From positions 1 through 52,142 of the IMG/VR virus record IMGVR_UViG_3300042197_000494: a DNA stretch of 52,142 nt; one strand, 5' to 3'. Shown piece by piece: positions 12,052 through 49,686 of this stretch (position 1 is its first letter; every line of letters starts with the position of its first letter). The notes under the pieces were generated by a model. The model was not told the DNA's origin. It saw nothing but the letters and a program-made list of their open reading frames with translations, and searched no databases. The translations under genes were made by a program, and so were the position numbers. This DNA is from a virus (taxonomy: Duplodnaviria; Caudoviricetes).

Positions 12052-12110
12052 TGAGGCTCATCAGTAGTGCCATTTAGCACTAGACCCTGCCAAGGCAGGG
12101 TTTCGCCTTA
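12052..12110 (-). ncRNA. type II hammerhead ribozyme HH1
   Basis: UAAGGC-GAAA-CCCUGC(CUUG)GCAGGG-UC^-UAGUGC(UAAAUG)GCACUA-CUGAUGA-GCCU; cleavage 12083/12082. Confidence 0.93.
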
Positions 12111-12324: not shown

Positions 12325-12415
12325 AGACTCGTCAGTGCGGTCATTTAACCGCATACACCCAACGGAAGTTTTTTAAGCGTTTCACTTAGGCGTTTCCACT
12401 GGGTGTTTCGTCTTA
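12325..12415 (-). ncRNA. type II hammerhead ribozyme HH2 (extended stem III)
   Basis: UAAGAC-GAAA-CACCCA...UGGGUG-UA^-UGCGGU(UAAAUG)ACCGCA-CUGACGA-GUCU; cleavage 12354/12353. Confidence 0.9.
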
Positions 12416-13733: not shown

Positions 13734-13791
13734 TGGCTCGTCAGTATCGGCACTTACCGATAGACCCTACCGAAGTAGGGTTTCGCCATTA
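13734..13791 (-). ncRNA. type II hammerhead ribozyme HH3
   Basis: UAAUGGC-GAAA-CCCUAC(UUCG)GUAGGG-UC^-UAUCGG(UAAGUG)CCGAUA-CUGACGA-GCCA; cleavage 13763/13762. Confidence 0.94.
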
Positions 13792-14264: not shown

Positions 14265-14331
14265 TAATCTGAACTCGTCAGCGTTGGCGTTTACCAACGG
14301 ACTGCCCGAAGGCAGTTTCGTTCTTTGATTA
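14265..14331 (-). ncRNA. type II hammerhead ribozyme HH4
   Basis: UAAUC-AAA-GAAC-GAAA-CUGCC(UUCG)GGCAG-UC^-CGUUGG(UAAACG)CCAACG-CUGACGA-GUUC-A-GAUUA; cleavage 14300/14299. Confidence 0.94.
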
Positions 14332-14894: not shown

Positions 14895-14920
14895 AACTTT
14901 TCAACCCTCTTTCGTTTAGT

Positions 14921-15127
14921 TTAGGAACGACCTGAAGACCTTCCGTGCTTCAAGTCGGGACTGTCTTTGTGGACAATAGTGAAACCTTGCTTTGGCACAA
15001 GCAATAATCGGTAATTTTCTCTACCGCTAATGCCATTTTCAATTAAACAATTTCTTTGCATGCAGTAGTGGTAACCCAGTTCCCATCTTTCTGGATTAAC
15101 TGGGTCGCCACAGGTAATACAGTTCAC
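14921..15127 (-). CDS. small zinc-finger protein (DksA/TraR-like CxxC...R..LG...C)
   Basis: CITCGDPV.PERWELGYHYCM...PKQG. Confidence 0.65.
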   Translation of the reverse strand: MNCITCGDPVNPERWELGYHYCMQRNCLIENGISGRENYRLLLVPKQGFTIVHKDSPDLKHGRSSGRS

Positions 15128-15381
15128 TACTTGACTTCCGTCTTAACATAAACTCTAGTCACCCTTGTTCCCTCAAGGTTTTCTAGTTCATAGATAGTTT
15201 CATCTTCATAGACATCAATTACCAAAGAAGGTGAATCAATATTCTTGTTAATAAAATTGACTCGCCTTTTTACAGAGTTTGCATTATCTTCGGGAGTAGC
15301 ATAATCTCCACCACAACCGCAGGCACAACCAGTCTTCCCACGATATGTTTCATTGACATCTTGCATTTTGATAGTGTTCAT
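15127..15381 (-). CDS. hypothetical protein (GCACGCGG motif)
   Basis: First ORF downstream of HH5; GAAAGGGT RBS. Confidence 0.7.
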   Translation of the reverse strand: MNTIKMQDVNETYRGKTGCACGCGGDYATPEDNANSVKRRVNFINKNIDSPSLVIDVYEDETIYELENLEGTRVTRVYVKTEVK

Positions 15382-15404
15382 TGGTTACCCTTTCGTTTTC
15401 AGAC

Positions 15405-15464
15405 AGACTCGTCAGTTACGGCGGATACCGTAAGACACGCAACAGGATGCTGCGTGTTTCGTCT
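15405..15464 (-). ncRNA. type II hammerhead ribozyme HH5
   Basis: AGAC-GAAA-CACGCA(GCAUCCUGU)UGCGUG-UC^-UUACGG(UAUCCG)CCGUAA-CUGACGA-GUCU; cleavage 15434/15433. Confidence 0.92.
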
Positions 15465-15952
15465 TATATAATTAGTTGCACAACTTACTACCGCAAGATA
15501 GTTTGTTGATATATTTGAATTTACAGTTTGAAGTCATTCGCCGTAGGTCTAATCTCTTTACCGTTGCGACCGGAATCACTTTTATCACTCGCTCTTTTGT
15601 TAGTGGAACTAACACAGTTATCGCGAAAGTAATATCCTCACCTAGAACTGGCTAAGTCGTCGTATTATCTTGATTGACCAAGTAGTAATCTTTGAAATGA
15701 ATCAGTCTTGTTAAGTTCGCTTTTACGAGCACCCAAATTATTGTAACGATTTAGGATGCTGAGACTTCTCAAAGAGTTTCCTTTGACTATCCCTTCAGTA
15801 TGTAATTATCAGGTAATAATCTTTCTGTCACCTTAAGAAGTTCCCTAGGGATTTAATGACTTCCTAAGTTCACCAGAGTTTTATCCCTGACCGTAGTTTT
15901 TTCACTTTTGAGTTTTGCCCCTTGGGGTTTCTGAAAACTCAGCCGTGCCTAC
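15465..15952 (-). ncRNA. candidate large structured non-coding RNA (~490 nt)
   Basis: No ORF of 60 aa or more; many hairpins; 9-bp long-range pairing 15530-15538/15855-15863; upstream TAAAAT. Confidence 0.5.
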
Positions 15953-15958
15953 CCCTTC

Positions 15959-15999
15959 ATTTTACCGCTTCAGACTGTAAAACACTACCCCCACGACAC
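15959..15999 (-). promoter_or_regulatory. putative early promoter (-10 TAAAAT; upstream GACAC/GTGTC box)
   Basis: TAAAAT at 15964-15959; GACAC at 15995-15999 (plus). Confidence 0.4.
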
Positions 16000-16097
16000 G
16001 CTTGGTCTGCTTTGGTTTTAAGCCCTATCTTTTGATATACCCCCTAGAAGGGGCTTAGAAGCCCATTACAGAGGCTATTATTAAAATATAGTAGTTA

Positions 16098-16304
16098 CTA
16101 CTGGGATATAAGCGAAGAAGGCTCTACGCCCAATATATCGGCTAATTTGAGTATCGTAGAGAATTTGGCTGGCTTACTCTTCTCTAGCCTACACAGGCTT
16201 TCGGGTCGTATTCCAACCATATCTGCCAACGCAGACTGGGTAATAAACTTAGCCTTGCGTAATGCTTTTATTCTTTCTCCATTGACGATAGCGGTAGCAG
16301 ACAT
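16098..16304 (-). CDS. XRE/Cro-C1 family HTH regulator
   Basis: IKALRK....TQ..LA..VGI....L.RLE......TI.KLA..LGV. Confidence 0.9.
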   Translation of the reverse strand: MSATAIVNGERIKALRKAKFITQSALADMVGIRPESLCRLEKSKPAKFSTILKLADILGVEPSSLISQ

Positions 16305-16354
16305 AATATCCCATTCTTTATTTGTAATTGTAATGGTATTTATACCACGAGAAC

Positions 16355-16365
16355 GACAGCCGAAT
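16355..16365 (-). promoter_or_regulatory. repeated motif ATTCGGCTGTC, copy 3 (upstream of XRE gene)
   Basis: Exact repeat. Confidence 0.5.
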
Positions 16366-16597
16366 CTAGTTTTTTTAATAATATCTCATTATTTGAGTAG
16401 TGTTGATTGATATTATATCTGTATCCTGCGTCAAACTATCACGGACGCAGGTCTAAGACCGAGTTGATGCCCCTCTGTCCCATGAGGTGTGGCTCCTCGG
16501 TCTTAGTTATTTTAGAAATATATCTGTATAGATATGGTCTTTACACCTTGATTACATCTAATTGACCTGTCACAATTATATTCCAGAAGGAGGCGAA

Positions 16598-16780
16598 ATG
16601 AATAAGACTTATTATCAAGGCTTTGTTCGCAACTGTCTGAATGAGTTGGCTGAAATAGACCAACAAATAAACTTACTTGACCCTGTCGTAGATAAAGATA
16701 AAATTGCTTATCTTAGAGAAGAGTCGCTTAAAGTGCAGTTAAGAGCAGATGCATTTTGTAGGCGCACTTTAGTTATTTGA
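16598..16780 (+). CDS. small hypothetical protein (60 aa)
   Basis: ATG 16598 preceded by AGGAGG. Confidence 0.65.
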   Translation: MNKTYYQGFVRNCLNELAEIDQQINLLDPVVDKDKIAYLREESLKVQLRADAFCRRTLVI

Positions 16781-29824: not shown

Positions 29825-30167
29825 ACCTTACTTTAGTGTGATGAACTGTTGCTGTTCCGTTTGCGCTATAACTTACCTTATCTACGCTAAGTATTCTAGG
29901 GTCTGCATTATTTCCCGGCAAATCTAATCTGTCACCAACTTCAATATCAGCGTCCGAAAGTATATAAAGAGTTCCTCCTTCAACAACTTGGTTGCCTTGA
30001 TCGTCACGAGTAGTTGCAACATCTGAAATTATGCGACAACTAAAGTTGGTGCCTGCACCACTTATTGATTTCGAGCCATAGTTATTAAGAGTAGTTGCTT
30101 TATAGACCGTAATAGTATCGGTCATGTCGTCTAGCCAGTGGTTGGGCTGTCCTGCTATGTAGGTCAT
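29805..30167 (-). CDS. head-tail stopper/closure protein
   Basis: Position and D.ITVY.....NYG pattern. Confidence 0.7.
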   Translation of the reverse strand: MTYIAGQPNHWLDDMTDTITVYKATTLNNYGSKSISGAGTNFSCRIISDVATTRDDQGNQVVEGGTLYILSDADIEVGDRLDLPGNNADPRILSVDKVSYSANGTATVHHTKVRFGSLGG

Positions 30168-30179
30168 AATGCCCCCAGT

Positions 30180-30590
30180 TTATACTGTGTAGTCGTGCAT
30201 TCCTGTATAGAAATCAGTCTTATAGGTAGTTACTGTTTTATCAGCAGTCGCCATAATTGCTGAAGCGTTTATTTCTACTGAAGGTGGGTACAGATCAAGT
30301 TCTTGGGCTTTTAATCTTTTAGCCAGTTCTCGAAACTCTTGGGCGGAAGTAGCATAAGACTCTGATATTGATAAATCGCCAATGCTTCTTGAATAGTTTG
30401 TTTTATGAGCATACTTGGCTGCAATAATTTCTGCTGCGTAGGCTGCTGCTGCATAAACATTACCCCAAGTCTCAAATAGATATGTTATTTCTGCGTCATG
30501 TAAATGAAAATCAGTAGAATCGGTATCTCCAACTAAAAATCTTATCTTATCTCGATTACCTGAGGTTGGGTCAACATAGGTAAATGCCAT
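30180..30590 (-). CDS. head-tail adaptor protein
   Basis: D.IRFLVGDTD.....L.D.EI, SIGDLSIS. Confidence 0.75.
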   Translation of the reverse strand: MAFTYVDPTSGNRDKIRFLVGDTDSTDFHLHDAEITYLFETWGNVYAAAAYAAEIIAAKYAHKTNYSRSIGDLSISESYATSAQEFRELAKRLKAQELDLYPPSVEINASAIMATADKTVTTYKTDFYTGMHDYTV

Positions 30591-30940
30591 TACATACCAC
30601 CAAGCAAAAAGGTTACAACCCTTGAGCGATTAAGTATCTCTGCTTCGCTAGTTACTGATGAGGTTAAAGCAACTGTGCCATCTGAATCGGGCAAAGTGAT
30701 AGTTCGATCGGCTGTTGGGTCGGTAGCCAAAAGAGTAAGTTCATAAGAATCAGCAGTAGCACCTTCAAAAATTACGGCAGTAGGAACTGTTGGGTTGGCA
30801 GTAAATGTTCCACCGCTTTTGAGAACATAATCATCTAACTCGGTATCAACATCTGTGGCTAGATTTTCGAAATCAACAGCGATATTCGGCGCATCTGCGT
30901 TCTGCGGATAACGCAAGCCCTTAGTCGTTGTACCTGCCAT
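30590..30940 (-). CDS. virion appendage protein
   Basis: FEG.TAD..E.TL...DPTADRTITLP repeat shared with 35484..36056. Confidence 0.65.
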   Translation of the reverse strand: MAGTTTKGLRYPQNADAPNIAVDFENLATDVDTELDDYVLKSGGTFTANPTVPTAVIFEGATADSYELTLLATDPTADRTITLPDSDGTVALTSSVTSEAEILNRSRVVTFLLGGM

Positions 30941-30949
30941 TTCTTACTC

Positions 30950-31129
30950 CTAACTAATTATCGGTTGAGCATCTAAAAGAGTTACATCTCGCTTAGAAAC
31001 AAAACCACCATCACGGTCAAGTTTACCTTGTGCCGATTTTTCATCGGTGTCAAACACCGAAACAATCATCTTTACTTCATAAGTAAATACTTTTGTTTCT
31101 TTTTGTGCTACTTTTGAATCTTTAGCCAT
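30950..31129 (-). CDS. small hypothetical protein (59 aa)
   Basis: Manual ORF MAKDSKVAQ...AQPIIS with AGGAG RBS. Confidence 0.6.
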   Translation of the reverse strand: MAKDSKVAQKETKVFTYEVKMIVSVFDTDEKSAQGKLDRDGGFVSKRDVTLLDAQPIIS

Positions 31130-31146
31130 TGTTTCTCTCCTTAGGA

Positions 31147-32943
31147 TTATGCGGCATATCGAACTATAACGATACCTGAGCCACCTGAACCACCACTAGA
31201 ATTAAAAGTTGCTCCAGCGCCACCGCCACCGCCAGTATTATCTGTCCCCGATGTACCATTATGGGTTCCAGTACCACCTGTTGTAAAGTTTCCTGCTCCA
31301 CCGCCACCTGAACCGCCAGTTCCTCCAGCAGTTGCACCTGTACCATAACAACCACCACCACCACCACCTGCATAAGTGACAGATGAACCAGTAATTGAAA
31401 TAGCAACACCAGCACCACCATTACCACCAGTAGTTGATGTAGCAGTTCCCGCTTGTCCTACCGCTCCTGCTCCTCCACCACCACCACCACGATAAATACC
31501 TGTGGATTGGGTCATACCATTACCACCAGCAAAACCTTGACCTGAAGGAGATGCTGTGCCACCAGTACCAGCAGGAGAAGCATCTTCTCCAGCACCACCA
31601 CCACCGCTACCACCTGAATTTGCGTTTAGTGTACCTGAAGGTCGATAACTTCCACCACCACCACCGCCAGTTGAAGTAATACTTGAAAACACAGAGTTTG
31701 AACCATTACTACCTGCGGGTCTATCGCTATTACTACCACTAGGAGAACCAGCACCACCAGCACCGACTGTTACTGTGTATCCAGTCCCCGAAGTTAGTGA
31801 TAATGCTGATTCAAGTGAACCTCCACCGCCAGTTGCGGTTACGGTAGAACGCAATCCACCAGCACCGCCACCACCGCCATGTTGTGTACCACCACCCGCT
31901 CCACCTGCTACGACTAAATAATCAGCAGTTAAATTTTGAGTAGGTGTAAAAGTTCCACTAGATGTGAATGTGTGAATAATATAGCCACCAGTTGAATCAT
32001 AAGTAATAGTTCCACCAGTTGCTTTTGTTGGCACAGTAGTAAAAGTCCCTGATGAATTAAATGTATAAACTGTGTATGAACCTGAAGTGGTCTGAGTACC
32101 ACCAATGAATGTGCCTTCTGAAGTTAGAGCGCGAAGGATTACAACTCCTGAACCACCTGCTGCACCATTACCACCACTAGTTCCACCACCACCTCCGCCA
32201 CCACCTAGGTTGACAGTTCCAGCAGTACCGTGTGCAGTCGCATTTGCACCTGCACCTCCACCACCAGTTCCTCCAGCACCAGCATTGGCTCCACCGCCAC
32301 CACCGCCACCACCGCCATAAGTTACGGATGAACCAGTAATTGATACTGCAGTTCCATTTCCTCCAGCACCACAAACTGAACTGGTTGCAGTTCCGCCAGC
32401 AGCACTGGTTCCTCCTCCACCACCGCATCTTTGATTTCCAGAAGAACCTGCTCCACCATCTTTACCTTGACTAGCGGTACCTAAACCAGCAGCGAACCCA
32501 CCGACTCCTTGAGCACCTCCGCCACCGCATCCACCATTAGCACCAGAACCTTGACCTGAACCATCTCCTCCACCACCACCTCCGCCTAAAGAAGTAATAG
32601 TTGAAAATATAGAATCAGAACCATTAGAGCCTCGTTGGTTTGGGTCAGCACCTCTTGCTCCGCCACCGCCAACTGTAACTGTATATGAAGTTGCTAAAGT
32701 AAGGGACAACGCAGTTTCTAAAGTTCCACCATTACCAGTTGCTGTTACAGTTGAGCGTAAACCTCCAGCACCTCCGCCACCAGAACATTCATCACCACCT
32801 CCACCACCACCAGCAAGTACAAGATAATCAACTGGAATAATGGTTTGTCCTCTAGCCCCAGTCAAAGTGATATTACCTGTGGTCAAAGATGAAACTTGTG
32901 ACCCGGGAATCATGATGCGCTGTAAGCCGAGGTGTGTGGTCAT
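31147..32943 (-). CDS. glycine-rich virion fibre/adhesin protein (two repeat units)
   Basis: DYLVVAGG.GG...GGSG.VI.RY units with HTFTSSGTF. Confidence 0.8.
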   Translation of the reverse strand: MTTHLGLQRIMIPGSQVSSLTTGNITLTGARGQTIIPVDYLVLAGGGGGGDECSGGGGAGGLRSTVTATGNGGTLETALSLTLATSYTVTVGGGGARGADPNQRGSNGSDSIFSTITSLGGGGGGGDGSGQGSGANGGCGGGGAQGVGGFAAGLGTASQGKDGGAGSSGNQRCGGGGGTSAAGGTATSSVCGAGGNGTAVSITGSSVTYGGGGGGGGGANAGAGGTGGGGAGANATAHGTAGTVNLGGGGGGGGTSGGNGAAGGSGVVILRALTSEGTFIGGTQTTSGSYTVYTFNSSGTFTTVPTKATGGTITYDSTGGYIIHTFTSSGTFTPTQNLTADYLVVAGGAGGGTQHGGGGGAGGLRSTVTATGGGGSLESALSLTSGTGYTVTVGAGGAGSPSGSNSDRPAGSNGSNSVFSSITSTGGGGGGSYRPSGTLNANSGGSGGGGAGEDASPAGTGGTASPSGQGFAGGNGMTQSTGIYRGGGGGGAGAVGQAGTATSTTGGNGGAGVAISITGSSVTYAGGGGGGCYGTGATAGGTGGSGGGGAGNFTTGGTGTHNGTSGTDNTGGGGGAGATFNSSGGSGGSGIVIVRYAA

Positions 32944-32957
32944 GGTTTTTTATTTCC

Positions 32958-33329
32958 TTATTCGGTAACTAAGTCCCAAGAAGTTGTTTCTTCATTCCAT
33001 GTGTATCTTTCGCCGTCTGTTGGATAAGCAACAGGGGCTTCCCATAGACATGAAGTTTCATTCAATGTCCATGAAGCGAAAGGCTTTGGAGGAATGAAGG
33101 CATCACGACCTGAATCGTATGTGTATCCAATTCCTGCATAGTTTTTGCGGAAAGGTGTTCCACCTAAAGCGTGAACTCCTCCTGATGTGTTGTATGAAGT
33201 CTTGACCCAAGTACCGCCAAGACCTAGTGTGTTAGCAAGAAAGTTTTGTCCATCGTTTTCTTGAGCATTATCAACTACAAGAACACGGAGAACTACTCCT
33301 TGCCCATCTATTTCTGCGAAGTGCGCCAT
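32958..33329 (-). CDS. conserved partner of Gly-rich fibres (MAHFAE family)
   Basis: MAHFAEI...W..TSYN...RKNYAGIGYTYD...DAFIPPKP..SW.L. Confidence 0.75.
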   Translation of the reverse strand: MAHFAEIDGQGVVLRVLVVDNAQENDGQNFLANTLGLGGTWVKTSYNTSGGVHALGGTPFRKNYAGIGYTYDSGRDAFIPPKPFASWTLNETSCLWEAPVAYPTDGERYTWNEETTSWDLVTE

Positions 33330-33350
33330 TTTTTCTCCTTTGTTTGTTGT

Positions 33351-35099
33351 TTATGCCGCATAACGAATAATAACAATTCCTGAACCGCCAGAGCCACCAT
33401 TAAATGCAGTACCAGTGTAACCACCACCACCGCCTCCGCCACCAGTGTTTACAGTACCAGAATCACCAGCAACAATTTTATTACCATTACCGCCACCACC
33501 AGTACCGCCTGTACCTCTAGCAACATCATTACCACTCCAAACACCACCACCTGCACCACCGCCACCTGCATAATTAGTAGAAGTGCCAGAAATTGAATTA
33601 CTTACTCCCGCACCACCATTACCTGATGTACTAGTGTTTGGTGCAGTTTGTCCAGCAGCACCAGCACCTCCGCCTCCACCACTAGCATTACCAGCAGAAG
33701 CATTACCACCTGCAAAACCTTGATTTGCTGTACCTGCACCACCAGTAAAACCATCAGTTGAGGCACCTCCACCAGAACCACCACTACCGCCAGCCTTAGG
33801 ACCAACACCACTACCACCACCACCGCCACCGCCAGTGGAGGTGATAGTAGAAAATACTGAGTTGGAACCATTAGTTCCTCTTAACGCGCCTGAAGCACCA
33901 GCACCACCGCCACCTACTGTTACTGTATAACCAGTACCAGAAGTTAGAGACAATGTTGATTCAACAGAGCCGCCACCTCCAGTAGATATAACGGTACTGC
34001 GTAAACCTCCCGCACCGCCACCGCCACCTACAGCACCACCACCGCCTGCGCCTCCAGCAACAACTAAGTAATCAGCAGTAATGTTGCTTGTCGGCGTAAA
34101 AGTTCCTGATGAAGTAAAAGTATGAACCCAAAATCCGCCATCTTTAGTAATCGTTCCGCCAAGTGCTTTTGCTAGAGAGTATCTAACAATTACAACACCG
34201 CTACCGCCTGCTGCGCCAGCACGATATCCTCCTGAAAAGTATGCGCCACCTCCACCGCCACCGCCAAGATTTGTACCACCAGCAACAGAAGGAGATGTAT
34301 TATCTGATGAACCACCAGCACCGCCACCACCTGTACCACCTGTACCGCCAGCAGCATTACCACCAACGCTATCTTTGCGGCCACCGCCACCGCCTCCACC
34401 TGCATAGGTTACAGAAGTACCAGTTATTGATGATGCAACACCATTACCACCATTAGCGCCAGCAGTGTTTGTACCAGTAGAAGCATTTGAACCAACTGCT
34501 CCTGCACCACCGCCACCTGAACCTGAACTAGCACCACCAGTTTGTCCACCACCTGCAAAACCTTGATTTGCAGTTCCTGCTGCTCCTGCACCAGCATTAC
34601 CACCGCCACCGCCTGAACCACCAGTTGTTGCCGCAGTACCATCACCACCACCTGCACCACCAGCAGTTGAAGTGATAGTAGAAAATACTGAGTTATTACC
34701 TGCTGTACCTGTTAAACCAGTAGCACCAGCACCTGCTCCGCCACCACCAACTGTAACTGTGTAACCAATACCTGATGTTAAAGATAATGCAGATTCTAAT
34801 GAACCACCACCGCCAGTAGCAGTTACAGTAGAGCGTAATCCACCAGCACCACCGCCACCACCAAGTGAACCACCTCCACCACCACCTGCTACTACTAGAT
34901 AATCAACAGTTAGATTTTGAGTAGGAGTGAAAGTATCTGAAGAATTAAAAGTGTGAACAATATAAGGATAATCTAAAGATACAGTTCCTCCGATTGCCAA
35001 AGGTCTAATTCCAGCAGAAGGCGTGGTGATAGCACCCGTCAGTAAAGATGAAACTTGAACTGACGGGTTAGCACCAAGAAGTCGTGATGGTAGTGACAC
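33351..35099 (-). CDS. glycine-rich virion fibre/adhesin protein (two repeat units)
   Basis: Paralog of 31147..32943. Confidence 0.8.
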   Translation of the reverse strand: MSLPSRLLGANPSVQVSSLLTGAITTPSAGIRPLAIGGTVSLDYPYIVHTFNSSDTFTPTQNLTVDYLVVAGGGGGGSLGGGGGAGGLRSTVTATGGGGSLESALSLTSGIGYTVTVGGGGAGAGATGLTGTAGNNSVFSTITSTAGGAGGGDGTAATTGGSGGGGGNAGAGAAGTANQGFAGGGQTGGASSGSGGGGAGAVGSNASTGTNTAGANGGNGVASSITGTSVTYAGGGGGGGRKDSVGGNAAGGTGGTGGGGAGGSSDNTSPSVAGGTNLGGGGGGGAYFSGGYRAGAAGGSGVVIVRYSLAKALGGTITKDGGFWVHTFTSSGTFTPTSNITADYLVVAGGAGGGGAVGGGGGAGGLRSTVISTGGGGSVESTLSLTSGTGYTVTVGGGGAGASGALRGTNGSNSVFSTITSTGGGGGGGSGVGPKAGGSGGSGGGASTDGFTGGAGTANQGFAGGNASAGNASGGGGGAGAAGQTAPNTSTSGNGGAGVSNSISGTSTNYAGGGGAGGGVWSGNDVARGTGGTGGGGNGNKIVAGDSGTVNTGGGGGGGGYTGTAFNGGSGGSGIVIIRYAA

Positions 35100-35112
35100 G
35101 CACTAACTCCTA

Positions 35113-35472
35113 TCAGGTAGTCGCTACTCGATTTACAAATCCGTGAATTGTTACAACATCTGCGGTTCCAGCATACGCCTTGATAATCAAAGAGTTGCGT
35201 AGAACTAGGTCAGGACAAACAAGTGTTAGACCTGATGTTGCAGGGATCGATAACTTAATGTCATCATCTACTGAGGTTGTTCCGCCCCATTGTAAAGTTA
35301 GGTTTACAGCAGATGCGCTTGAGTTATATGCATATAGCGTAATAACATCGCAATCTGTTGCTGATGAAGTTGCGGTATGGATAGTGGTACCAGCAGAAGA
35401 AGTTGCGGCAACTTTTACTGCTCTACCATCTGTTGAACCCGATAACGGGATTCGGCTTACTGTTGTTGCCAT
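35113..35472 (-). CDS. small beta-rich virion protein
   Basis: LSGSTDGR.VKVAAT...GT.IHT...G.VNR. Confidence 0.65.
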   Translation of the reverse strand: MATTVSRIPLSGSTDGRAVKVAATSSAGTTIHTATSSATDCDVITLYAYNSSASAVNLTLQWGGTTSVDDDIKLSIPATSGLTLVCPDLVLRNSLIIKAYAGTADVVTIHGFVNRVATT

Positions 35473-35483
35473 TTATTTTCTCC

Positions 35484-36056
35484 TTAAGCGAATACCTGCA
35501 CCGCAAAGGCGAAGGCTTGGTCGTTGGCTGATACTCCACCCGAAGATGCAGTAGCAAAAGATAATACTCCTGAACCATCAGTTGAAAGAACTTGGTTGGC
35601 TGTTCCATCGGCAGATGGCAAAGTCCATACTAGATTTGTTGTTATTGACGCTGGTGCTTTGAATCCAACATAATTAGTTCCATTGGCGGTTGCTTCTAGG
35701 AAACGAGTTTCGGCTTGATTATCGAAAGACGCTTGAGTTCCAATAGTCGGACTTGTTAAGGTTTTGTTAGTAAGAGTGTCTGTTGTATCTGTTCCAACAA
35801 GAGTAGTGGTTGCATTGGGAAGGGTAACTGTCCTGTCGGCAGTTGGTTCACCAGCCGTTAAAGTTAATTCACTAGCGTCAGCAGTTGTGCCTTCAAAAAC
35901 AATGCTTTGATTGAAAGCAATTTCAAGACCAGTTTGCTGACCTGAGAAGGTAGCATCTGAAATCGTTGGATTTGTAAGTGTTTTATTGGTAAGAGTCTGT
36001 GTTCCTGTGAGAGTAACTGCTCCTGCTGCTGAGGAGCCATTGAGGGTTATAGCCAT
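35484..36056 (-). CDS. fibre shaft-like protein
   Basis: TLTNKTLT repeats, TLP.ADGTANQVL.TDGSG.LSF. Confidence 0.7.
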   Translation of the reverse strand: MAITLNGSSAAGAVTLTGTQTLTNKTLTNPTISDATFSGQQTGLEIAFNQSIVFEGTTADASELTLTAGEPTADRTVTLPNATTTLVGTDTTDTLTNKTLTSPTIGTQASFDNQAETRFLEATANGTNYVGFKAPASITTNLVWTLPSADGTANQVLSTDGSGVLSFATASSGGVSANDQAFAFAVQVFA

Positions 36057-36385
36057 TATGCAATCTCCGATCCGAAGGCTTGAAATACTGCATTTGTGTC
36101 TGAGGCATAAACAGTTAGCACATCTGTTGCATCTAGTGTAATTCCAAGTGTGTAAGCAGCGGTTGAGTTCGCAGCCAAACTTGTGTCATATGCCAAATAC
36201 TGTGAATTCGCCAAAGATGCTCCATTTGGTCTTATAGCAATTCTGTAAGTTATAGCCGAGGCTGAAAGGTTAGCCACAGAAATTGTTGAAACTACTGTCT
36301 CGGTTGCCGCAGGAACAGTATAAAGAGTTGTTGCAGTAGTAGCAGCAGGATTGGACTGCCCTAATACCTTGTAGGTTGTTGCCAT
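36056..36385 (-). CDS. small beta-rich virion protein
   Basis: MATTYKVLGQ..P.ATT...LYTVP...FG.EI. Confidence 0.65.
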   Translation of the reverse strand: MATTYKVLGQSNPAATTATTLYTVPAATETVVSTISVANLSASAITYRIAIRPNGASLANSQYLAYDTSLAANSTAAYTLGITLDATDVLTVYASDTNAVFQAFGSEIA

Positions 36386-36388
36386 TTA

Positions 36389-37066
36389 TTATCCTCCGAT
36401 AAGCAGTAGTGGGTTAAGTCTAGCCGATAAAGTATTCGAAGCGGTTGTTGCCGAGGCTTGTGCCGCAATTCTTGCTGCATCTGCTTGAGCAACCTCCTCT
36501 GCCATATCACTACCAGAGACTGGATATGAACCAGAGTTTAGCAGAGTATATGTAGCAAAGGCACTATTGACTTGCGTATAAGTAGCATAACTTGCGTTAA
36601 TTTCCCAGTAGTTTCCTGAACTTGGGAACTCGTTGGTTGCCTGAGTAATAAGTGCGTCTAATGCTGCTATTGAAGTTTCGAGAGCAGCGAAAGGCACCTC
36701 GGTTATTAGCCCAATATAGGTTGTGTCTATTGTTGGAAGGGGAGAAATATCAGCAAGACTCAAAGCACCAGCACTCGCAGCAGGTAAAGTTATTGTGTAG
36801 GTTCTGCCACTTGGAAAGGCTTCTTCAACTGTATAACTAAATGTTGGAATAATATCGGCGTCATCTGTTGCTGGTAAAGAGGTCGAAAAGGAACCATTTG
36901 AATCTAAAGTAACAGCAATAGTTGAAGGCACAACCATTTCATTTGCAAGTGAGTTCCTGAGCATATCTGAAAGCGTAAATTGGACTTGACCTGCTATTGC
37001 TGTTCCTAAGAAATCAACGAAGTTTCCAGTAACTGTAACTTGGGTGACCGAGGCATCAATTGGCAT
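36389..37066 (-). CDS. virion structural protein
   Basis: N-terminal domain paralogous to 37265..37807. Confidence 0.65.
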   Translation of the reverse strand: MPIDASVTQVTVTGNFVDFLGTAIAGQVQFTLSDMLRNSLANEMVVPSTIAVTLDSNGSFSTSLPATDDADIIPTFSYTVEEAFPSGRTYTITLPAASAGALSLADISPLPTIDTTYIGLITEVPFAALETSIAALDALITQATNEFPSSGNYWEINASYATYTQVNSAFATYTLLNSGSYPVSGSDMAEEVAQADAARIAAQASATTASNTLSARLNPLLLIGG

Positions 37067-37263
37067 TATGCACCACCTAACATCATTCCAAAGGTGGCTC
37101 TTTTAGCGGAATCTCTTGCACTATTTCTTGCAGTCAAAGCCGCATTTACATCTGCAACAATTAAATCAGTATCGTCATCAATAGTATCCAAAGCATTTTC
37201 AAGTTCAGTCATTAGCGCAGCAGCAGTAGTATGTCTTGCTATTGCTACATATGGTTCAGCCAT
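37066..37263 (-). CDS. small structural protein
   Basis: Coupled ORF. Confidence 0.55.
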   Translation of the reverse strand: MAEPYVAIARHTTAAALMTELENALDTIDDDTDLIVADVNAALTARNSARDSAKRATFGMMLGGA

Positions 37264-37264
37264 T

Positions 37265-37807
37265 TTACATCCCCATCAAAACAAATTGATTTAATGCTGC
37301 TTTACTTGTTTCAACATTAGCAGTTTCTGCTTGGTCTGCATAAAGTTCAATGTTATCTAAGTTTGCGCCTGTGTCCGTCATTTGGTCGTACTCTGCATCA
37401 GCAGCCGTATATCTTGCTAATAAAGTATTGTACTGCGCCTGTGTAACATAACTTGCTGCTTCTGCTGATGTGACGGCAGGAGCGAGATCAGCGATATCTT
37501 GTGGGTCAGGAGTGTCGGTTGGCAGAGTAATAAAAAAAGTTCTTCCACCACTAAATACTTCTTCAACTTCATAAGCAAATGGCTGTGGGCTTACATCAGT
37601 ATCATCAGTTATTGGCAAAACTATAGAAAACTCACCGCTAGCATTGAGAGTTGCAGTCAAAGCCTGATTTACAATAATTTGATTTTGGTCAGTATCTTTG
37701 ATAATACTTTGAGGCGTAAAGCGAACAGAACCTGAGATTGGATTTCCTTGAATATCTACATAAGTTCCAGTCAGGGTAATGGTCGTAAGGTCGGGAGTTA
37801 AAGCCAC
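37265..37807 (-). CDS. virion structural protein
   Basis: TG.YVD..G.P..G.V.FT...L...G.FS..LP.TDD.D..P..F.Y.VEE.F..GR. Confidence 0.65.
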   Translation of the reverse strand: MALTPDLTTITLTGTYVDIQGNPISGSVRFTPQSIIKDTDQNQIIVNQALTATLNASGEFSIVLPITDDTDVSPQPFAYEVEEVFSGGRTFFITLPTDTPDPQDIADLAPAVTSAEAASYVTQAQYNTLLARYTAADAEYDQMTDTGANLDNIELYADQAETANVETSKAALNQFVLMGM

Positions 37808-37829
37808 AATATCTCCTTACTTTTCTTAA

Positions 37830-38102
37830 TTAGTTTCCTGCTCGCAGAACATTAACATTTTGGGTACTAGAAGCAACTATTCCATATACGATTTCACCTT
37901 GTAAAAGATCAATAGAAATATCTGCTCCACCAGCAAGAGCCACTCCATAAGAAGAGGTAGTCACGCCATTTCCGCCAATATAAACTGTAGTGCTTGCAGA
38001 TGGATTTTGAATTAAGACTGAGTGACCATCACGATCATTTGCGGCAGTAGAGATTACAGTCTGTGTAGTTCCAACCGACACAATATTATGTGTTATTGCC
38101 AT
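37830..38102 (-). CDS. small structural protein
   Basis: VLIQN.....VYIGG..VT...YG..L. Confidence 0.6.
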   Translation of the reverse strand: MAITHNIVSVGTTQTVISTAANDRDGHSVLIQNPSASTTVYIGGNGVTTSSYGVALAGGADISIDLLQGEIVYGIVASSTQNVNVLRAGN

Positions 38103-38149
38103 AAAACTCCTTTATAGATGGGGCGACTATCTCTAATCGCCCCTCTAGT

Positions 38150-38344
38150 TTACTTGTTGACTAAGTCTTTTTGCTGCTTAGGCTTTTTGATTTCTTCTTT
38201 AATCTCAACTGCATCTTCAATAAATTCAATATATCTATTGTTCTTTAATGAATTAGCAGTTCTCCAACCACTCACATCTACCACTGTTGAAGGCAATAAT
38301 ATCTCACCATTAACAGTCATTTGCTTAAGAATTCTGGCTCTCAT
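38150..38344 (-). CDS. hypothetical protein
   Basis: Start moved to ATG 38344 (MRARILK). Confidence 0.55.
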   Translation of the reverse strand: MRARILKQMTVNGEILLPSTVVDVSGWRTANSLKNNRYIEFIEDAVEIKEEIKKPKQQKDLVNK

Positions 38345-38345
38345 C

Positions 38346-38693
38346 TTAGGCGGTTGTATCAATCCAGCAATAAGAAAATGTTGCAGATGCTTGGTCAATT
38401 GCACCTGCTGTTGGATTGTAGAGATAGATTGTTACTGTATCTGCTGCTGTTACGGCTGCTCCAGCAAAGATTAAATCATCATTTAAGCCTGATGGTGGAT
38501 TTACGATGATGATGTCTGTTGTGGCAGCACCAGTCAAAGTAAATGTAGTTCCACCACGAGTTGTGGCTGCGATTGAAGCAGGATCAATGGCTACTGTACC
38601 GAATTCAATACTGTAAACAGTACTGCCATCGCTACCAATTTGTAATGCGCCAACTGATGCTTCGCCTCTTGTAAGTCTATTTACTTGTGGCAT
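38346..38693 (-). CDS. capsid decoration-like protein
   Basis: Directly after MCP; IDP.SIAA...TFT.TGA...D...V.AA.TVT...YN. Confidence 0.6.
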   Translation of the reverse strand: MPQVNRLTRGEASVGALQIGSDGSTVYSIEFGTVAIDPASIAATTRGGTTFTLTGAATTDIIIVNPPSGLNDDLIFAGAAVTAADTVTIYLYNPTAGAIDQASATFSYCWIDTTA

Positions 38694-38713
38694 ATTTTTC
38701 CTTTTCTAATAAA

Positions 38714-38743
38714 GAAAGGAGAGCCAATAAAGACTCTCCTTTC
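38714..38743 (-). terminator. intrinsic terminator after major capsid gene
   Basis: GAAAGGAGAG/CUCUCCUUUC 10-bp stem followed by UUUAUU. Confidence 0.7.
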
Positions 38744-38756
38744 ATTTGTTACTGAA

Positions 38757-39734
38757 TTAAGCGACTATTGTATTCCAGAAATAACCAAGGTCAGAGCCAA
38801 TAACTTTATTGTCGAAAGCCATTTCAGCCTCAACACGCTCTGCCTTTAGTGACTCCATACGGAATGAACTTACACCAATTGTTGAACCAATACCGCCTGA
38901 TACACCAGTCCATGAGAAGGTATAACCTGCTGATGGAGTTAGTAATCCCGGACTTGGTGCTACATAATAAAGTGCTGCTGCTTTACCGTAAGCAAATCCA
39001 TATGCTTCGGCTGCACCTTCATTATTGGTTGCTTTTACTGCACGAGCAACAAGAACACGATCTAAGTCAAACATACGAGCAAGCATATCCTCTGTAATTG
39101 TTTGGCTTGATGTGTACTTAATGCGGTCAACTAAATCTGGGTGATTCTTTAATTGACGGAATACTTCATAACCTAATACGAGAGTATTTGGAGCCATACC
39201 TGTGTTACCTAGGATTTCGCTCTTTGCCTCTTCGATATCATCGATTGGGTCTGAAGATGTGTAATCTGACCATTGCTTTGTCTCACCTGCAGATGGGGCA
39301 CCTGCAACGCCTGTTACATCATCAGCCCATACTCCAGTTGTGAAGAAGTCAGATACGAATTGTAATTCTTTACGAAGAAGCATACGGTTTGTAACGAACT
39401 CTGTTGCCTCACGAAGAGGATTCAAAGGTGCGTCTGCGTTAGCAACTGTTTGATCGCCTACATCTTTATGGAAGGCAAATACATCTGCTGCGTATGTTCC
39501 TGTGGTTAGGTTGTAACCTGAACCTGCGGACTCTGTTCCATCTGCTCGGCGTTGTGCCTCGTCACGGAACCAGTCGTTCTTGGTATAAACAAAATACTTA
39601 TCGCTCTTCTTATCAACAGGTACTACTGGGAATACCTTGTCTGCGATGAAGTTATCTGCTTTTTGCATGTATGCAACTGAGATATTAGTCAGAATTGCAT
39701 CAACATGTACGGAGTTAATATTTGGTTGTGGCAT
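38757..39734 (-). CDS. major capsid protein
   Basis: HVD..LTNISVAY......IAD.VFP.VPV.K.SD.Y, W.D...SDPI.DI. Confidence 0.92.
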   Translation of the reverse strand: MPQPNINSVHVDAILTNISVAYMQKADNFIADKVFPVVPVDKKSDKYFVYTKNDWFRDEAQRRADGTESAGSGYNLTTGTYAADVFAFHKDVGDQTVANADAPLNPLREATEFVTNRMLLRKELQFVSDFFTTGVWADDVTGVAGAPSAGETKQWSDYTSSDPIDDIEEAKSEILGNTGMAPNTLVLGYEVFRQLKNHPDLVDRIKYTSSQTITEDMLARMFDLDRVLVARAVKATNNEGAAEAYGFAYGKAAALYYVAPSPGLLTPSAGYTFSWTGVSGGIGSTIGVSSFRMESLKAERVEAEMAFDNKVIGSDLGYFWNTIVA

Positions 39735-39749
39735 GTTTGTTTACGCTCC

Positions 39750-40145
39750 TTATGCGGCTCTGCCCGGATTAGCACAATTGATGACTGCTGTTACGATGTC
39801 ACCAGATGCTCCAGACTCGGTTAGTAGGGTTCCAACTACATACTTAGTTGTATCAGTGCCAGCAACCAAAGCAACTGCCTTGCCTGTTGAACTTGTTCCA
39901 ACTAATGCGCCTTCACCAATTGCTGCTCCAGCAACAATCTTTGTTCCTCCAACAACTAGCACTTCTGCTTCTTGTCCTGAGGTTGGAGCGTTCTGTAGTA
40001 CGCCAATTGGAATATCGGTGGCTGCTGCTGCTGCGGCTGCCTTACCTGCTGAATCCAATTTAACGAAGGTATATTGCAGTGCTGATAAATCGGCAGCAGC
40101 AACAAGTGTAATCTTTACACTGTAATTACTAATTTCATATGCCAT
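39750..40145 (-). CDS. capsid cement/decoration protein (DUF2190-like)
   Basis: AAADLS..QY.FVK...IGVLQN.P..G..A.V. Confidence 0.8.
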   Translation of the reverse strand: MAYEISNYSVKITLVAAADLSALQYTFVKLDSAGKAAAAAAATDIPIGVLQNAPTSGQEAEVLVVGGTKIVAGAAIGEGALVGTSSTGKAVALVAGTDTTKYVVGTLLTESGASGDIVTAVINCANPGRAA

Positions 40146-40148
40146 GGT

Positions 40149-41036
40149 TTAGGCACCTCTCTCGGATAGATATTGATTGTACAAATCTGGATTAGAAAGA
40201 ACAGCCTCTGAAAATGCTTGTTCAAAAGTAACCTTCTTTGTTTCTGTGGCTGACTTAGCCAAAGATGTAAGTTGGTCATAAGCATTGCCTGTTGCTGGAT
40301 TTGCTGACTTACCAATTTCTGCAAAGATATTTGCTGACTCTGCTTGTGCATTTACTGAAGAAAGTGCTTCTTCAACAGACTTTGCAAGGTCGGCATCTAC
40401 TTCTGCTAATTGACGAAGTGCTGGTCCAACTTTTTCAGCATCAAGACCTAGGAATTTCCAAGCCTTTGCCTTCTCAACTGCCTCTTCATTTGCACGAGCA
40501 ACTCTTTCTGATTTTAGAACTTCTTCAATTTCTGCTACACGAGTTTGTGCTTCTTTCGCAGATTTCTCCATTGATTCTAACATTGCACGAATTGGCTCTG
40601 GTGCTTCCTTGATTAGTGAGGTTATGTCTTCTTTCTTCATATCCTCATCTGGTTGTTTCATTTTTGCCAACTTTTTATTGGCTTTATCTAACTCGTCTTC
40701 AAGTTCAGCAATCTTTTTCTTCATATCGTCATAAGACATTTTTTTCTTGTCTTCTTCCATATGCATGCCCTTTTCTTTATCTTCTTCGGGCATATGTTTT
40801 GCTTTGTCGATGACATCTTGTGTTGCATCTTGTGCCATGGGTTCCTCCTCAGTCCCTTTCTGGTACAGACTTGCATCTGATTGGTTTTCTTGTATTGCTA
40901 GGTCTGAAAGAAGGTCGTCCATGCCAGTCAAATTATCTGACTTGATGACTAACCAACCTTCGTGAAGATGAGCAGGATGGTCAACGCCTGATGCTTCCTC
41001 TATGTTAAGAGCAACCATCTTACGGGCTTTGGACAT
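40149..41036 (-). CDS. capsid scaffolding protein
   Basis: I.E.SGVDHPAH..EGW.V.KS N-terminus, charged coiled coil, NPDLY..Y end, upstream of capsid genes. Confidence 0.75.
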   Translation of the reverse strand: MSKARKMVALNIEEASGVDHPAHLHEGWLVIKSDNLTGMDDLLSDLAIQENQSDASLYQKGTEEEPMAQDATQDVIDKAKHMPEEDKEKGMHMEEDKKKMSYDDMKKKIAELEDELDKANKKLAKMKQPDEDMKKEDITSLIKEAPEPIRAMLESMEKSAKEAQTRVAEIEEVLKSERVARANEEAVEKAKAWKFLGLDAEKVGPALRQLAEVDADLAKSVEEALSSVNAQAESANIFAEIGKSANPATGNAYDQLTSLAKSATETKKVTFEQAFSEAVLSNPDLYNQYLSERGA

Positions 41037-41120
41037 TCATACTCCTATTCATCATAGATAGTTCAAAATCGTGCCTCTATCTAACTTCAAAGGATAACAT
41101 ACACGATGGGTTTATTTTAT

Positions 41121-41300
41121 CTACTGTTGGGGTTTATTTGGTGCGGTAGCCATATTACGCAAAGCCGTGTTTAGATTGTTAAACTTTATCTGCTCAGAAA
41201 CATAGCAGTCGGTGCAAATAATCAAGTTCCCAAACTGCTGTCCGCCAAATTTGGGGTTGAAAAATCGATCACATTTAGGGCAGTTTTTAGCCTTGCTCAT
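41121..41300 (-). CDS. small zinc-finger protein
   Basis: Start ATG 41300; CPKC...CTDC. Confidence 0.55.
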   Translation of the reverse strand: MSKAKNCPKCDRFFNPKFGGQQFGNLIICTDCYVSEQIKFNNLNTALRNMATAPNKPQQ

Positions 41301-41707
41301 TACTTGATTGGTCCTCCGACTACCCATGCCCGACAGGTTCTTTTGGCTGCACACTTGAAATCAAAAGCCTCGCAGTAGCCTAATTGTCCTGCTGCATCTA
41401 TTGAGTCAAACTCATCTTTCCTATCGCTTCCAGTTAATCCAGAGGCAATACAATCCTTCATCTCTGGCGTAACATTAAATACCGCACAGTTTCCACATCT
41501 TTGTTTTTTAGCGACCTCGGCTGTTACTTCCCATTCTTTTGCTATCTTTTCCCAATACTCTTCATTGGGTTCGGCTGGGTTGAGTGGTCCATACATGGCG
41601 GTATCGATAGCATTTTTGCGATTTTTCAAATTAAGTTTTATATCTTTTGTTGGCAGGGGGCAATCACCCTCTGCTTTATTGACTGTGAACTTATGTGGTT
41701 GAAGCAT
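41300..41707 (-). CDS. Cys-rich head-module protein (HiPIP-like Cys spacing)
   Basis: QRCGNCAVF...GYCEAFDFKCAAKRTCRAW. Confidence 0.65.
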   Translation of the reverse strand: MLQPHKFTVNKAEGDCPLPTKDIKLNLKNRKNAIDTAMYGPLNPAEPNEEYWEKIAKEWEVTAEVAKKQRCGNCAVFNVTPEMKDCIASGLTGSDRKDEFDSIDAAGQLGYCEAFDFKCAAKRTCRAWVVGGPIK

Positions 41708-41713
41708 TATTTA

Positions 41714-42142
41714 TTAACCTCCAGTTGGTCCAGATAAAACAGTATGTAGTGCGCCCATTTCTAAAGATAAATCTTCAAGTCTTATAGATGCTGGAGTGTT
41801 TGTGCGACTTAACTTGCGAGCAGCATTATCTATTGCTAACTTCAAACTCATTATTGATGATGCCGCAGACTTTGGTGTGTTTGCTTTACCAGCACTCCAA
41901 ATATGTGTTTTGGCTCTTGCTAAATCATTTGCTGCTGCCATATTTGATGTTCTCTTGAATTCATCTTGTATTTTACGGCTAACAGAATTTAATTTCTGTG
42001 GAAGTGCTTCCAATGCTGCTTGTCCACCACCACCATGTTCGGGGTGTGTTCGACCTCCACCATGTGTCTTTTGGTCGTGAGTGCCGTGTTTAACTACTCC
42101 GCCCATTATCTTCCAATACCTCTCTACTAAATTAGGCTTCAA
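41714..42142 (-). CDS. head-module protein with KHGTHDQKTH tag
   Basis: Motif read directly. Confidence 0.7.
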   Translation of the reverse strand: MKPNLVERYWKIMGGVVKHGTHDQKTHGGGRTHPEHGGGGQAALEALPQKLNSVSRKIQDEFKRTSNMAAANDLARAKTHIWSAGKANTPKSAASSIMSLKLAIDNAARKLSRTNTPASIRLEDLSLEMGALHTVLSGPTGG

Positions 42143-43039
42143 CTAAATATCCCACTCACCATCTAAGCCTAGTTCCCTCATCTCATCTTGTGGCAAACCT
42201 TCAAGTGCTCCTTGTTGAATCCAACCGACTTTTGTTCTTCTGCTTGATATTTGAATTTTATTTAATTTACCTAAAGAGATATCATATTTATTATATCCAG
42301 TTTGTAATTTATTTAGTTTTGCTTGCCCTGTGAGAGATTTAGCATCATTCCAATCTTTTTTCGCTGAGTTTAACCCATTCATTACGGTATCTAAACTTCT
42401 TATTTCTTTCATTGAATCGGCTTCGCCCTGAACTTCTTTTAAGTCTGACAATATAGAATCAACATTATCGTTCAATTTAGGTATTGTTTCGTCTGCTAAT
42501 TTATCTGAATATTCAACAGTATTTGCTGTGTTTGGTTTTGGTTTAGATCCCCCACTACTTGAACCACCACCACCTCTGCCACCTCTGCGACCATGTGATG
42601 CTTGGTTGTGGGAGCCGTGTTTTTCTATATTAATATCAATGCTTTTTTCTAAAGAAATAACAGTCAAATCTGCTCCGTTAATATAGCCTTCTTCTCCATC
42701 ATCTGTTTTTACTCCATGAAATTTACCTGAAGGTGCTGATTGCACTACCCTTCCTTTTTTCCCATCAAGCGCACTACCTCCGCTAATCTTAACTCTCACA
42801 CCTTCAGCATTTTTTATATTATCTAAAGTATCGCCACGCTTCAAACCTTTTTTTGACCCACTATTACCGAAATTTAATCTTGCTAATTCACGCAAATCAG
42901 CACTGGAAAGTCCGCTAGCCCCACTGTTTCCACCACTACCTTTTCTGCCATGAGAAGCCTGATTGTGTGAGCCATGTTTCTCTATTGTTTCTCTGTGAAG
43001 CAATATTGTAGTTTCAGGTAAAGACTTTCTAACAAACAT
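42143..43039 (-). CDS. head-module protein with two KHGSHNQASH tags
   Basis: Motif occurs twice; KOW/SH3-like segment between. Confidence 0.7.
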   Translation of the reverse strand: MFVRKSLPETTILLHRETIEKHGSHNQASHGRKGSGGNSGASGLSSADLRELARLNFGNSGSKKGLKRGDTLDNIKNAEGVRVKISGGSALDGKKGRVVQSAPSGKFHGVKTDDGEEGYINGADLTVISLEKSIDINIEKHGSHNQASHGRRGGRGGGGSSSGGSKPKPNTANTVEYSDKLADETIPKLNDNVDSILSDLKEVQGEADSMKEIRSLDTVMNGLNSAKKDWNDAKSLTGQAKLNKLQTGYNKYDISLGKLNKIQISSRRTKVGWIQQGALEGLPQDEMRELGLDGEWDI

Positions 43040-45534: not shown

Positions 45535-45543
45535 GGCTTTATT

Positions 45544-45690
45544 CTATCGACTTTCATCTTGGGCTTCGGGTTCAACGCCAGTGAAGTCCTTTATTTCTTC
45601 TGCTTTACGGATTTTAGACTCACCTATTCTGCGAACAAGAAGGCGAGCACCTTCGGTCATTGATCCCGCAAATCTTTCGGCTTTACTCAT
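45544..45690 (-). CDS. small hypothetical protein (48 aa)
   Basis: Manual ORF MSKAERFAGS...QDESR overlapping ART stop. Confidence 0.5.
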   Translation of the reverse strand: MSKAERFAGSMTEGARLLVRRIGESKIRKAEEIKDFTGVEPEAQDESR

Positions 45691-48281: not shown

Positions 48282-48302
48282 AACTAATAACGCTCTGCGT
48301 TT

Positions 48303-49679: not shown

Positions 49680-49686
49680 TTACATT

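Follow-up and report, generated by a model that had tools for sequence, protein, structure and literature searches.

A conserved, structured non-coding RNA ending in a type II hammerhead precedes the early genes of a lake phage

What does a phage keep in the largest stretch of its genome that is free of open reading frames, and what does it mean that this stretch lies immediately upstream of its early genes? The question is raised by IMG/VR record IMGVR_UViG_3300042197_000494, a linear phage record of 52,142 bases with an estimated completeness of 86%; "the window" denotes this whole stretch of DNA. The minus strand carries nearly all of its genes, in the order head and tail genes (portal, head morphogenesis), lysis cassette with endolysin, 68-aa regulator, ORF-free gap and small early genes. 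Beyond these lie DUF932, RecT with an exonuclease, a replication initiator, a ParB-like protein and a homologue of queuine tRNA-ribosyltransferase. The original prediction, made from sequence alone, placed in the gap a large structured RNA whose 3' end is cut by a hammerhead ribozyme (HH5). Comparison with homologues bears this out: a multi-helix, covarying, non-coding RNA extends up to HH5.

The gap's upstream neighbour (16098-16304, minus strand) encodes a helix-turn-helix regulator of the XRE type, 68 aa long, that falls in PHROG transcriptional repressor and regulator families; it is kept upstream in every closely related copy of the RNA (type A, below) whose contig extends that far. Downstream, the first early gene (15127-15381, minus strand) encodes an 84-aa protein of phrog_5930, a family of unknown function; the gene led to 25 related loci. 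DNA runs that contain most of the stretch are lake or freshwater metagenomes. Among cultured phages, no relative was found of the gap (blastn) or of the 20-kb late-gene stretch 30000-50000 (megablast); the portal protein is 56-60% identical to Arthrobacter phage portals, a likeness that weakly hints at a possibly actinobacterial host.

A non-coding RNA between the regulator and the early genes

As had been claimed, the gap is the largest ORF-free stretch of the window. At cut-offs of 60 or 80 aa on both strands, or 50 aa on the minus strand, it spans 15382-16097 (716 nt), and with 50 aa applied to both strands the sub-stretch 15656-16097 is still the largest. The -10-like box TAAAAT that had been proposed is present on the minus strand at 15964-15959, and relatives hold TATAAT, TAGGAT, TAAAAT or TATACT at the same position; no match to a -35 element was found upstream of it, and a sigma-70 consensus scan omits the site. 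Transcription would start at about 15952-15953, 6-7 nt downstream of the box, because the first helix of the RNA (P1) begins there and the box ends at 15959.

Conservation follows a transcript. Mean pairwise identity across the eight type A copies rises from 48.4% between the regulator stop codon and the -10 box to 77.9% over the box itself; the RNA stands at 91.7% and HH5 at 90.4%, and the 16 nt that lead up to the start codon of the first gene reach 100%. The type A RNA, at 91.3%, is more conserved than the neighbouring regulator gene, at 86.9% nucleotide identity. The conserved unit runs from 6-7 nt past the -10-like hexamer into the ribozyme and ribosome-binding site, boundaries that mark out a transcript rather than a gene or a DNA site. 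Between ribozyme and first gene lies a short 5' leader with the ribosome-binding site of that gene (15382-15404, minus strand), in which 15400-15385 is 100% identical in all eight copies. This 16-nt tail is shared by the window (15382-15400) and loci L028, L029, L034, L038, L040, L045 and L047, and beyond the start codon the copies carry different first genes (84, 72 or ~197 codons). Judged from these sequences, the hammerhead with its ribosome-binding site is a mosaic recombination boundary in type A phages.

Folding is pronounced on one strand. On the minus strand, the 526 nt that lead up to the cleavage site reach -132.2 kcal/mol (z -3.14; one of 100 shuffles as good), versus z +0.39 on the plus strand of the same stretch (65 of 100 shuffles as good). 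Homologues came from two sources. The regulator gene led to two copies, and an 18-nt pattern scan of metagenome contigs to 24 loci, six of them true by nhmmer and five of those new. Type A is represented by eight distinct full-length copies from lake metagenomes, 81-98% identical. For these, RNAalifold predicted 140 pairs, 12 with compensatory changes; with P1 (4 bp) added by eye, the final model has 141 pairs in 22 helices. Its figure of 99.4% of cells paired is inflated, as the model derives from the same eight sequences, and the safer measure is the count of compensatory changes against slid controls, in which the 3' partner is shifted by 1-3 columns. Such changes occur at 15 of the 141 pairs, against a shuffle mean of 5.4 (0 of 500 shuffles reach 15) and 0-1 in the slid controls. 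A scan for other covarying helices gave none better than this model. Many G-U pairs are conserved, or alternate with G-C or A-U between copies, which is consistent with the minus strand only. That we are dealing with a real structured RNA is highly likely.

The RNA, which we call type A (15434-15953, minus strand), is ~520 nt long from its presumed start to the cleavage site. Nine of its helices covary, five of them in a variable body of ~310 nt (15486-15796, minus strand); the remaining body helices are invariant or change on one side, and several rest on energy alone because they never vary. Among the body helices are 15774-15760/15704-15690, 15759-15749/15738-15729 and 15617-15608/15604-15594. 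RNAalifold also predicts a candidate long-range helix closing the ends (15485-15478 with 15948-15941), which crosses P1 and would be a pseudoknot. It is invariant apart from one U-A to U-G change, with no covariation in the eight copies; in two further types of this RNA described below, B and the probable type D, the CACGG motif has a partner, GUGC or UUGUG, at the equivalent position ahead of the 3' end. Four of the five hairpins originally drawn (15941-15909; CUUAGGAAG/CUUCUUAAG; 15760-15728; UGUUAG/CUAACA) are kept in all eight copies with compensatory changes. The fifth, UCAAAG/CUUUGA, had to be given up: it is broken in four of the eight, and its strands pair elsewhere, in long-range pairs between columns 175-177 and 276-278 and between columns 184-190 and 262-268, with compensatory changes. 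A 9-bp complementarity that had been read as a long-range pairing (15863-15855 with 15538-15530) exists and is invariant bar one C-to-U change, after which G-U pairing remains. It shares bases with two modelled helices, one of them covarying, and shows no informative variation in the eight copies.

RNA libraries contain this region in contigs roughly as long as the RNA itself. Twenty-four public runs contain the stretch or parts of it, and four lake metatranscriptome runs from four studies were compared with 14900-16500 at a likeness of at least 80%. Each of the four holds a single contig, 473-484 nt in length, which extends over 15470-15937 (to 15921 in one run) with ~92% identity and a depth of 8-21, and two also contain fragments of a more divergent variant. 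These contigs, not far in size from the ~520-nt species that RNA-seq had been suggested to look for, are assemblies from libraries that can carry DNA. In all four runs the contig ends at 15470 with no long loose end, whereas the DNA contigs of relatives continue. This shared stop is a weak hint of a discrete species, as the contigs break off at columns that are polymorphic (18-19 and 487 in alignment A3), and their ends may reflect breaks in assembly rather than RNA ends. No contig in the four runs lies over the regulator gene, the 3' part of HH5 or the first gene, a missing cover that proves nothing.

Could the conservation belong to DNA or to protein instead? An element that works as DNA (for example a replication origin, a packaging site, an operator array or a genome end) would suit the location, where the lysis cassette and regulator meet the early and replication genes, and also a record that is linear and incomplete. 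It would not, however, account for compensatory changes that keep Watson-Crick and G-U pairing on one strand only, for a strand-specific folding excess, for a conserved block that runs from just past the -10-like box to the ribozyme and ribosome-binding site, or for the occurrence of the stretch in RNA libraries; reading the stretch by eye also revealed no iteron-like repeats, and we consider such an element extremely improbable. We give just as little credence to the encoding of one or more short peptides. Minus-strand ORFs of 47, 35 and 26 codons are there to be read, the last (a GTG ORF) being kept in seven of eight copies, but the 47-codon ORF is lost in three copies and truncated in one, the 35-codon ORF is lost in four, and 1-nt indels fall at alignment columns 133 and 439. 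Variable columns are spread 34/24/42 over the codon positions, with no clear third-position excess, against 13/7/35 in the neighbouring regulator gene. A coding stretch was rejected on these grounds: no ORF kept in all eight copies, 1-nt indels and no clear codon periodicity. What 15434-15953 encodes on its minus strand is a conserved RNA that is non-coding and highly structured.

Hammerheads of the early operon

The RNA ends where the original prediction had it end, at a complete type II hammerhead found by our own pattern search (HH5; 15405-15464, minus strand), with the cleavage-site C at 15434 and cleavage predicted after it. HH5 has the core elements CUGACGA and GAAA and the cleavage triplet GUC; stems III (up to 10 bp) and I (7 bp) are closed, and stem II (4 bp) is open. 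In the eight copies the core is invariant except at the free position N7 (C, A or U). Stem I carries an A-U to G-C change in four of eight copies, and stem III a C-G to U-A change in L038. In the full-length minimum-energy structure HH5 is natively folded, with no competing alternative seen. The intact core and covarying stems argue for self-cleavage, and we think it very probable, on this sequence evidence, that the RNA is released by HH5.

Four further type II hammerheads were found by the same search at 14275-14319, 13738-13784, 12329-12409 and 12058-12104 (minus strand), so that the window holds five, co-oriented on the minus strand and all between early genes. Rfam model RF02276 reports two of the five in E-value mode (33.1 and 32.7 bits) and misses three with canonical cores; it therefore under-detects the hammerheads of this phage lineage. 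HH5 itself gave no match to RF02276 even at E <= 10, where the gathering cut-off of 37 bits is an operational threshold and not a biochemical feature; HH5 has the sequence and structure by which a type II hammerhead is defined, not the Rfam score. A pseudoknot between loop I and the 3' tail, common in this type and not obligatory, was not evident by eye in HH5. The hammerhead of another locus, L006, offers a 4-bp UGGC/GCCA candidate for it.

Dense ribozyme arrays also occur in contigs of related phages: L022-L027 (e.g. L022:1304-4493) carry 6-9 type II hammerheads within 6 kb, and almost every small early gene there is ribozyme-flanked.

A shared 5' domain with exchangeable bodies

The first ~150 nt of the RNA (15808-15952, minus strand) form a conserved 5' domain that is common to three architectures, types A, B and C. 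It comprises P1 (15952-15949 with 15896-15893), a 4-bp helix at the 5' end; the P2 hairpin (15941-15909); and a three-way domain made of an outer stem (15891-15881/15819-15808), a short stem (15877-15874/15827-15824) and a long hairpin (15868-15832). P1 occurs as GUAG/CUAC, ACUG/CAGU or GGC/GCC, and the change from GUAG/CUAC to ACUG/CAGU is seen in two type A copies. The outer stem of the three-way domain is invariant in type A, and three of its pairs change on both sides in L171. While helix sequences change, a set of unpaired motifs stays fixed: CACGGC, AAGUGAAA, GGUGAAC/GGUGAC, CAUUA..AAUCCCUAGGGA and AAUUACAUA. GGUGAAC stands opposite GGUGAC in a tandem G-A internal loop that looks kink-turn-like by eye.

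Type B came to light when pattern scans of IMG/VR returned L165, which matches the first ~163 nt only and whose first gene led to five further contigs. Its RNA of ~410 nt, present in six contigs, has the same 5' domain, a different body of ~190 nt, a similar 3' end and its own type II hammerhead. Type C was reached by a profile search of 176 loci followed by a covariance model (R1) built from 14 copies, which finds a divergent copy in L006 at 64.3 bits (E = 5.5e-12). In this single contig a ~25-nt linker replaces the body, giving an RNA of ~220 nt, and a hammerhead follows directly, at 36.5 bits in Rfam (cut-off 37). All three types share one layout, an ORF-free, promoter-proximal folded RNA with a hammerhead at its 3' end and the first early gene next, and in each the hammerhead has a complete catalytic core.

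Covariation supports the domain across these architectures. With 14 sequences, 11 of 46 pairs show compensatory changes, against 4.6 in shuffles and 0-2 in slid controls, and two cells are unpaired. When L006 is added in an alignment of 15 sequences fitted to the covariance model, 25 of 43 pairs do so; shuffles yield 6.8 (0 of 500) and slid controls 3-6. The family is narrow, the 5' domain being represented by 15 sequences (13 distinct), all from lake or freshwater data. The 5' domain is, by these comparisons of sequence, a module that related lake phages combine with different bodies.

A TACAG or TTACAG motif, common to types A, B and C, precedes the first conserved G by 19-25 nt (window 15978-15974; L165 ~1584-1589; L006 ~2543-2548). 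It lies between the expected positions of -35 and -10 elements, perhaps as a site for a regulator or as a component of a non-standard promoter.

A fourth architecture, type D, is probably represented by L030 (5023-5645) and L031 (2397-2915). Both have a conserved ORF-free stretch of 520-620 nt with weak collinear matches to the 5' domain and type A body, scoring 15.3 and 10.6 bits with the covariance model (E = 0.15-1.7) and E = 0.019 and 0.05 with nhmmer, values within the range of noise. In these loci, whose regulator is 75% identical, the RNA was at one point taken to have been replaced by two genes; this was rejected, a probable divergent copy lying further downstream in a 620-nt ORF-free gap. 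No hammerhead is detectable at the end of these two probable copies, so release by hammerhead is not universal.

The RNA is confined to few places in the data searched. A degenerate pattern of the 5' domain matched eight contigs and no others in IMG/VR, in a scan that may leave out the window's own record, and none of 185,579 species genomes; the three pattern scans of species genomes gave 19, 5 and 0 loci, none of them true, and 50,697 phage records held no match to the RNA. The endolysin is shared by 80 loci: nhmmer (E <= 10) finds the RNA in none of them, the regulator is likewise in none, and one has a hammerhead. The 25 loci with the 84-aa gene held no copy by single-sequence nhmmer, and one (L006) by profile and covariance model.

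Release, action and known counterparts

We propose that the RNA forms the first part of an early polycistronic transcript, and its position at the head of the early gene block suggests that it would be made first on infection. HH5 would cut co-transcriptionally after C15434, leaving an RNA of ~520 nt with a 2',3'-cyclic phosphate end and a first mRNA that begins with a 5'-hydroxyl, the stem I hairpin and the invariant ribosome-binding site; the four further hammerheads would cut the early operon into gene-sized pieces. More tentatively, the released RNA may persist as a free species and act in trans early in infection, and its invariant unpaired motifs could bind a host or phage factor, or other copies of the same RNA. 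The phage's own genes are unlikely targets of antisense regulation: no antisense match in the phage genome exceeds 13 nt (E = 0.33), which is at chance level. Overall, we judge a conserved, structured early-leader RNA, released by HH5 and acting in trans, to be the best explanation and a reasonably probable one. Action in trans rather than only in cis, taken by itself, is our leading reading, held with somewhat less than even confidence.

Alternatively, the RNA may be a purely cis-acting leader that serves the early operon by gating cleavage or translation of the first gene, by shielding the long untranslated start of the message from Rho or nucleases, or by timing early expression, with the released fragment as a by-product. 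In all architectures it is the physical 5' leader of the early operon, and the open stem II joins HH5 directly to the upstream RNA, whose fold could in principle control cleavage. The body, moreover, is exchangeable or dispensable across types A, B and C, where the promoter-proximal domain and hammerhead stay, and regulated cleavage is already discussed in the passages of Perreault et al. 2011 (PMC3088659) that bear on these ribozymes. Against such a role, however, HH5 takes up its native fold when the whole transcript is folded to minimum energy, with no competing fold seen, and contigs of the RNA alone occur in all four RNA runs. The unpaired motifs are also more conserved than the neighbouring genes, which suggests a specific binding surface. 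We therefore rank a leader that works purely in cis as rather unlikely, below action in trans.

Either reading leaves room for the 5' domain to be a new functional module, be it a sensor that allosterically gates the hammerhead or the binding or assembly core of a free RNA, a possibility that we regard as doubtful. If it gates, this would be a natural hammerhead under ligand or protein control that decides the fate of the early operon; if it serves a free RNA, sequestration of a host factor or an RNA-only multimer like ROOL and GOLLD would come into view. On such a view, early leader RNAs released by hammerheads would be a widespread, unrecognised class of phage host-takeover RNAs. And should the RNA act in trans or control its own release, the question of why phages devote the opening few hundred nucleotides of early transcription to RNA and not to protein becomes testable.

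Processing of a phage leader into separate RNAs has precedents. The early transcript of phage T7 is processed by RNase III, which includes removal of a leader before gene 0.3; there, as proposed here, one early polycistronic RNA becomes a leader plus gene-sized mRNAs with hairpin ends. The cuts in our phage would be made by encoded ribozymes, so that a host nuclease is not needed, and the leader itself is a conserved structured RNA, unlike that of T7. Similarly, the CI RNA of P4 and the C4 RNA of P1 and P7 are small regulators processed from the leader of the operon that they control; they are ~70-80 nt long, are cut by host RNase P and base-pair to nearby targets. Our RNA would resemble them in being a stable RNA excised from the 5' leader of a phage operon, but it has no complementarity above chance to the phage's own sequence. 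Large, intricately folded RNAs of unknown function are rare finds in bacteria and phages, and several large folded RNAs have proved to be ribozymes, sensors or self-assembling cages.

The hammerheads themselves have closer relatives. Clustered type II hammerheads in phage and prophage operons (RF02276) are described in the parts of Perreault et al. 2011 (PMC3088659) consulted here, as is one that lies 13 nt ahead of the first early gene in haloviruses HF1 and HF2. As in those systems, five co-oriented hammerheads flank single genes or small groups of one long transcript in the window, and HH5 stands ~25 nt before the ribosome-binding site of the first early gene. Those passages, however, concern ribozymes and not upstream RNA, whereas HH5 ends a covarying RNA of ~520 nt with a modular family of its own. 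Hammerheads of phage operons would gain a second role by this, the making of a discrete non-coding RNA, besides the separation of mRNAs.

No known class could be assigned to the RNA, as had been anticipated. Rfam 15 gave no gathering-score match anywhere in the window, and for 15380-16000 no match at E <= 10 to ROOL, GOLLD, OLE, HEARO or any other such family; for L006, L165 and L031 it gave none to them at E <= 1, and chance-level snoRNA rows only. Full-text literature searches, whose reach is article text rather than the supplementary motif lists of Perreault 2011 and Weinberg 2017, returned no description of it. The original comparison with ROOL and GOLLD stands for size, phage origin, modular build and unknown function, and falls for homology. 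Like GOLLD and ROOL as portrayed by Kretsch et al. (bioRxiv 10.1101/2024.12.08.627333), type A is several hundred nucleotides long, phage-encoded and rich in helices, has a conserved and a variable part and a pseudoknot candidate, and appears in environmental (lake) data and RNA libraries. It differs in matching neither covariance model at E <= 10, and also in its surroundings: ROOL and GOLLD frequently lie beside tRNA genes or arrays, whereas the 52-kb window has no tRNA or tmRNA gene by ARAGORN, and the type A RNA heads an early operon and ends in a ribozyme. We class it as a new, hitherto uncatalogued family of large structured phage RNA with a newly documented mode of production. For so few sequences the evidence is unusually clean: covariation of the module spans three architectures, the RNA has a defined start and end, and it is found in lake RNA libraries.

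Several other stretches near these genes or in related contigs are worth recording. In another phage, L007:1460-2032 combines a divergent promoter region with a leader of ~270-300 nt that has no plausible ORF before the first hammerhead. This leader shows no likeness to the type A RNA by sequence or covariance model; an 811-nt stretch of L007 has a sense-strand folding z of -5.8, but it includes a reverse-strand gene of 70 codons and a terminator. ORF-free stretches of 1.1-1.4 kb occur in phage contigs that share the endolysin (L100:5670-7081, L102:7087-8498, L151:3295-4568 and L144:5525-6614), where ORF-free means no ORF of at least 45 aa on the endolysin strand or at least 70 aa on the other, and where the stretches reach the end of the locus as retrieved.

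Finally, two features of the window lie outside the RNA. A second ORF-poor gap of 468 nt (16305-16772), between the endolysin and regulator genes, carries a 72-codon ORF on the opposite strand (16562-16780) and may be the site of the regulator's promoter and operators. At 629-2162 the homologue of queuine tRNA-ribosyltransferase adjoins the ParB-like protein, a pairing that may point to DNA modification of the deazaguanine type.
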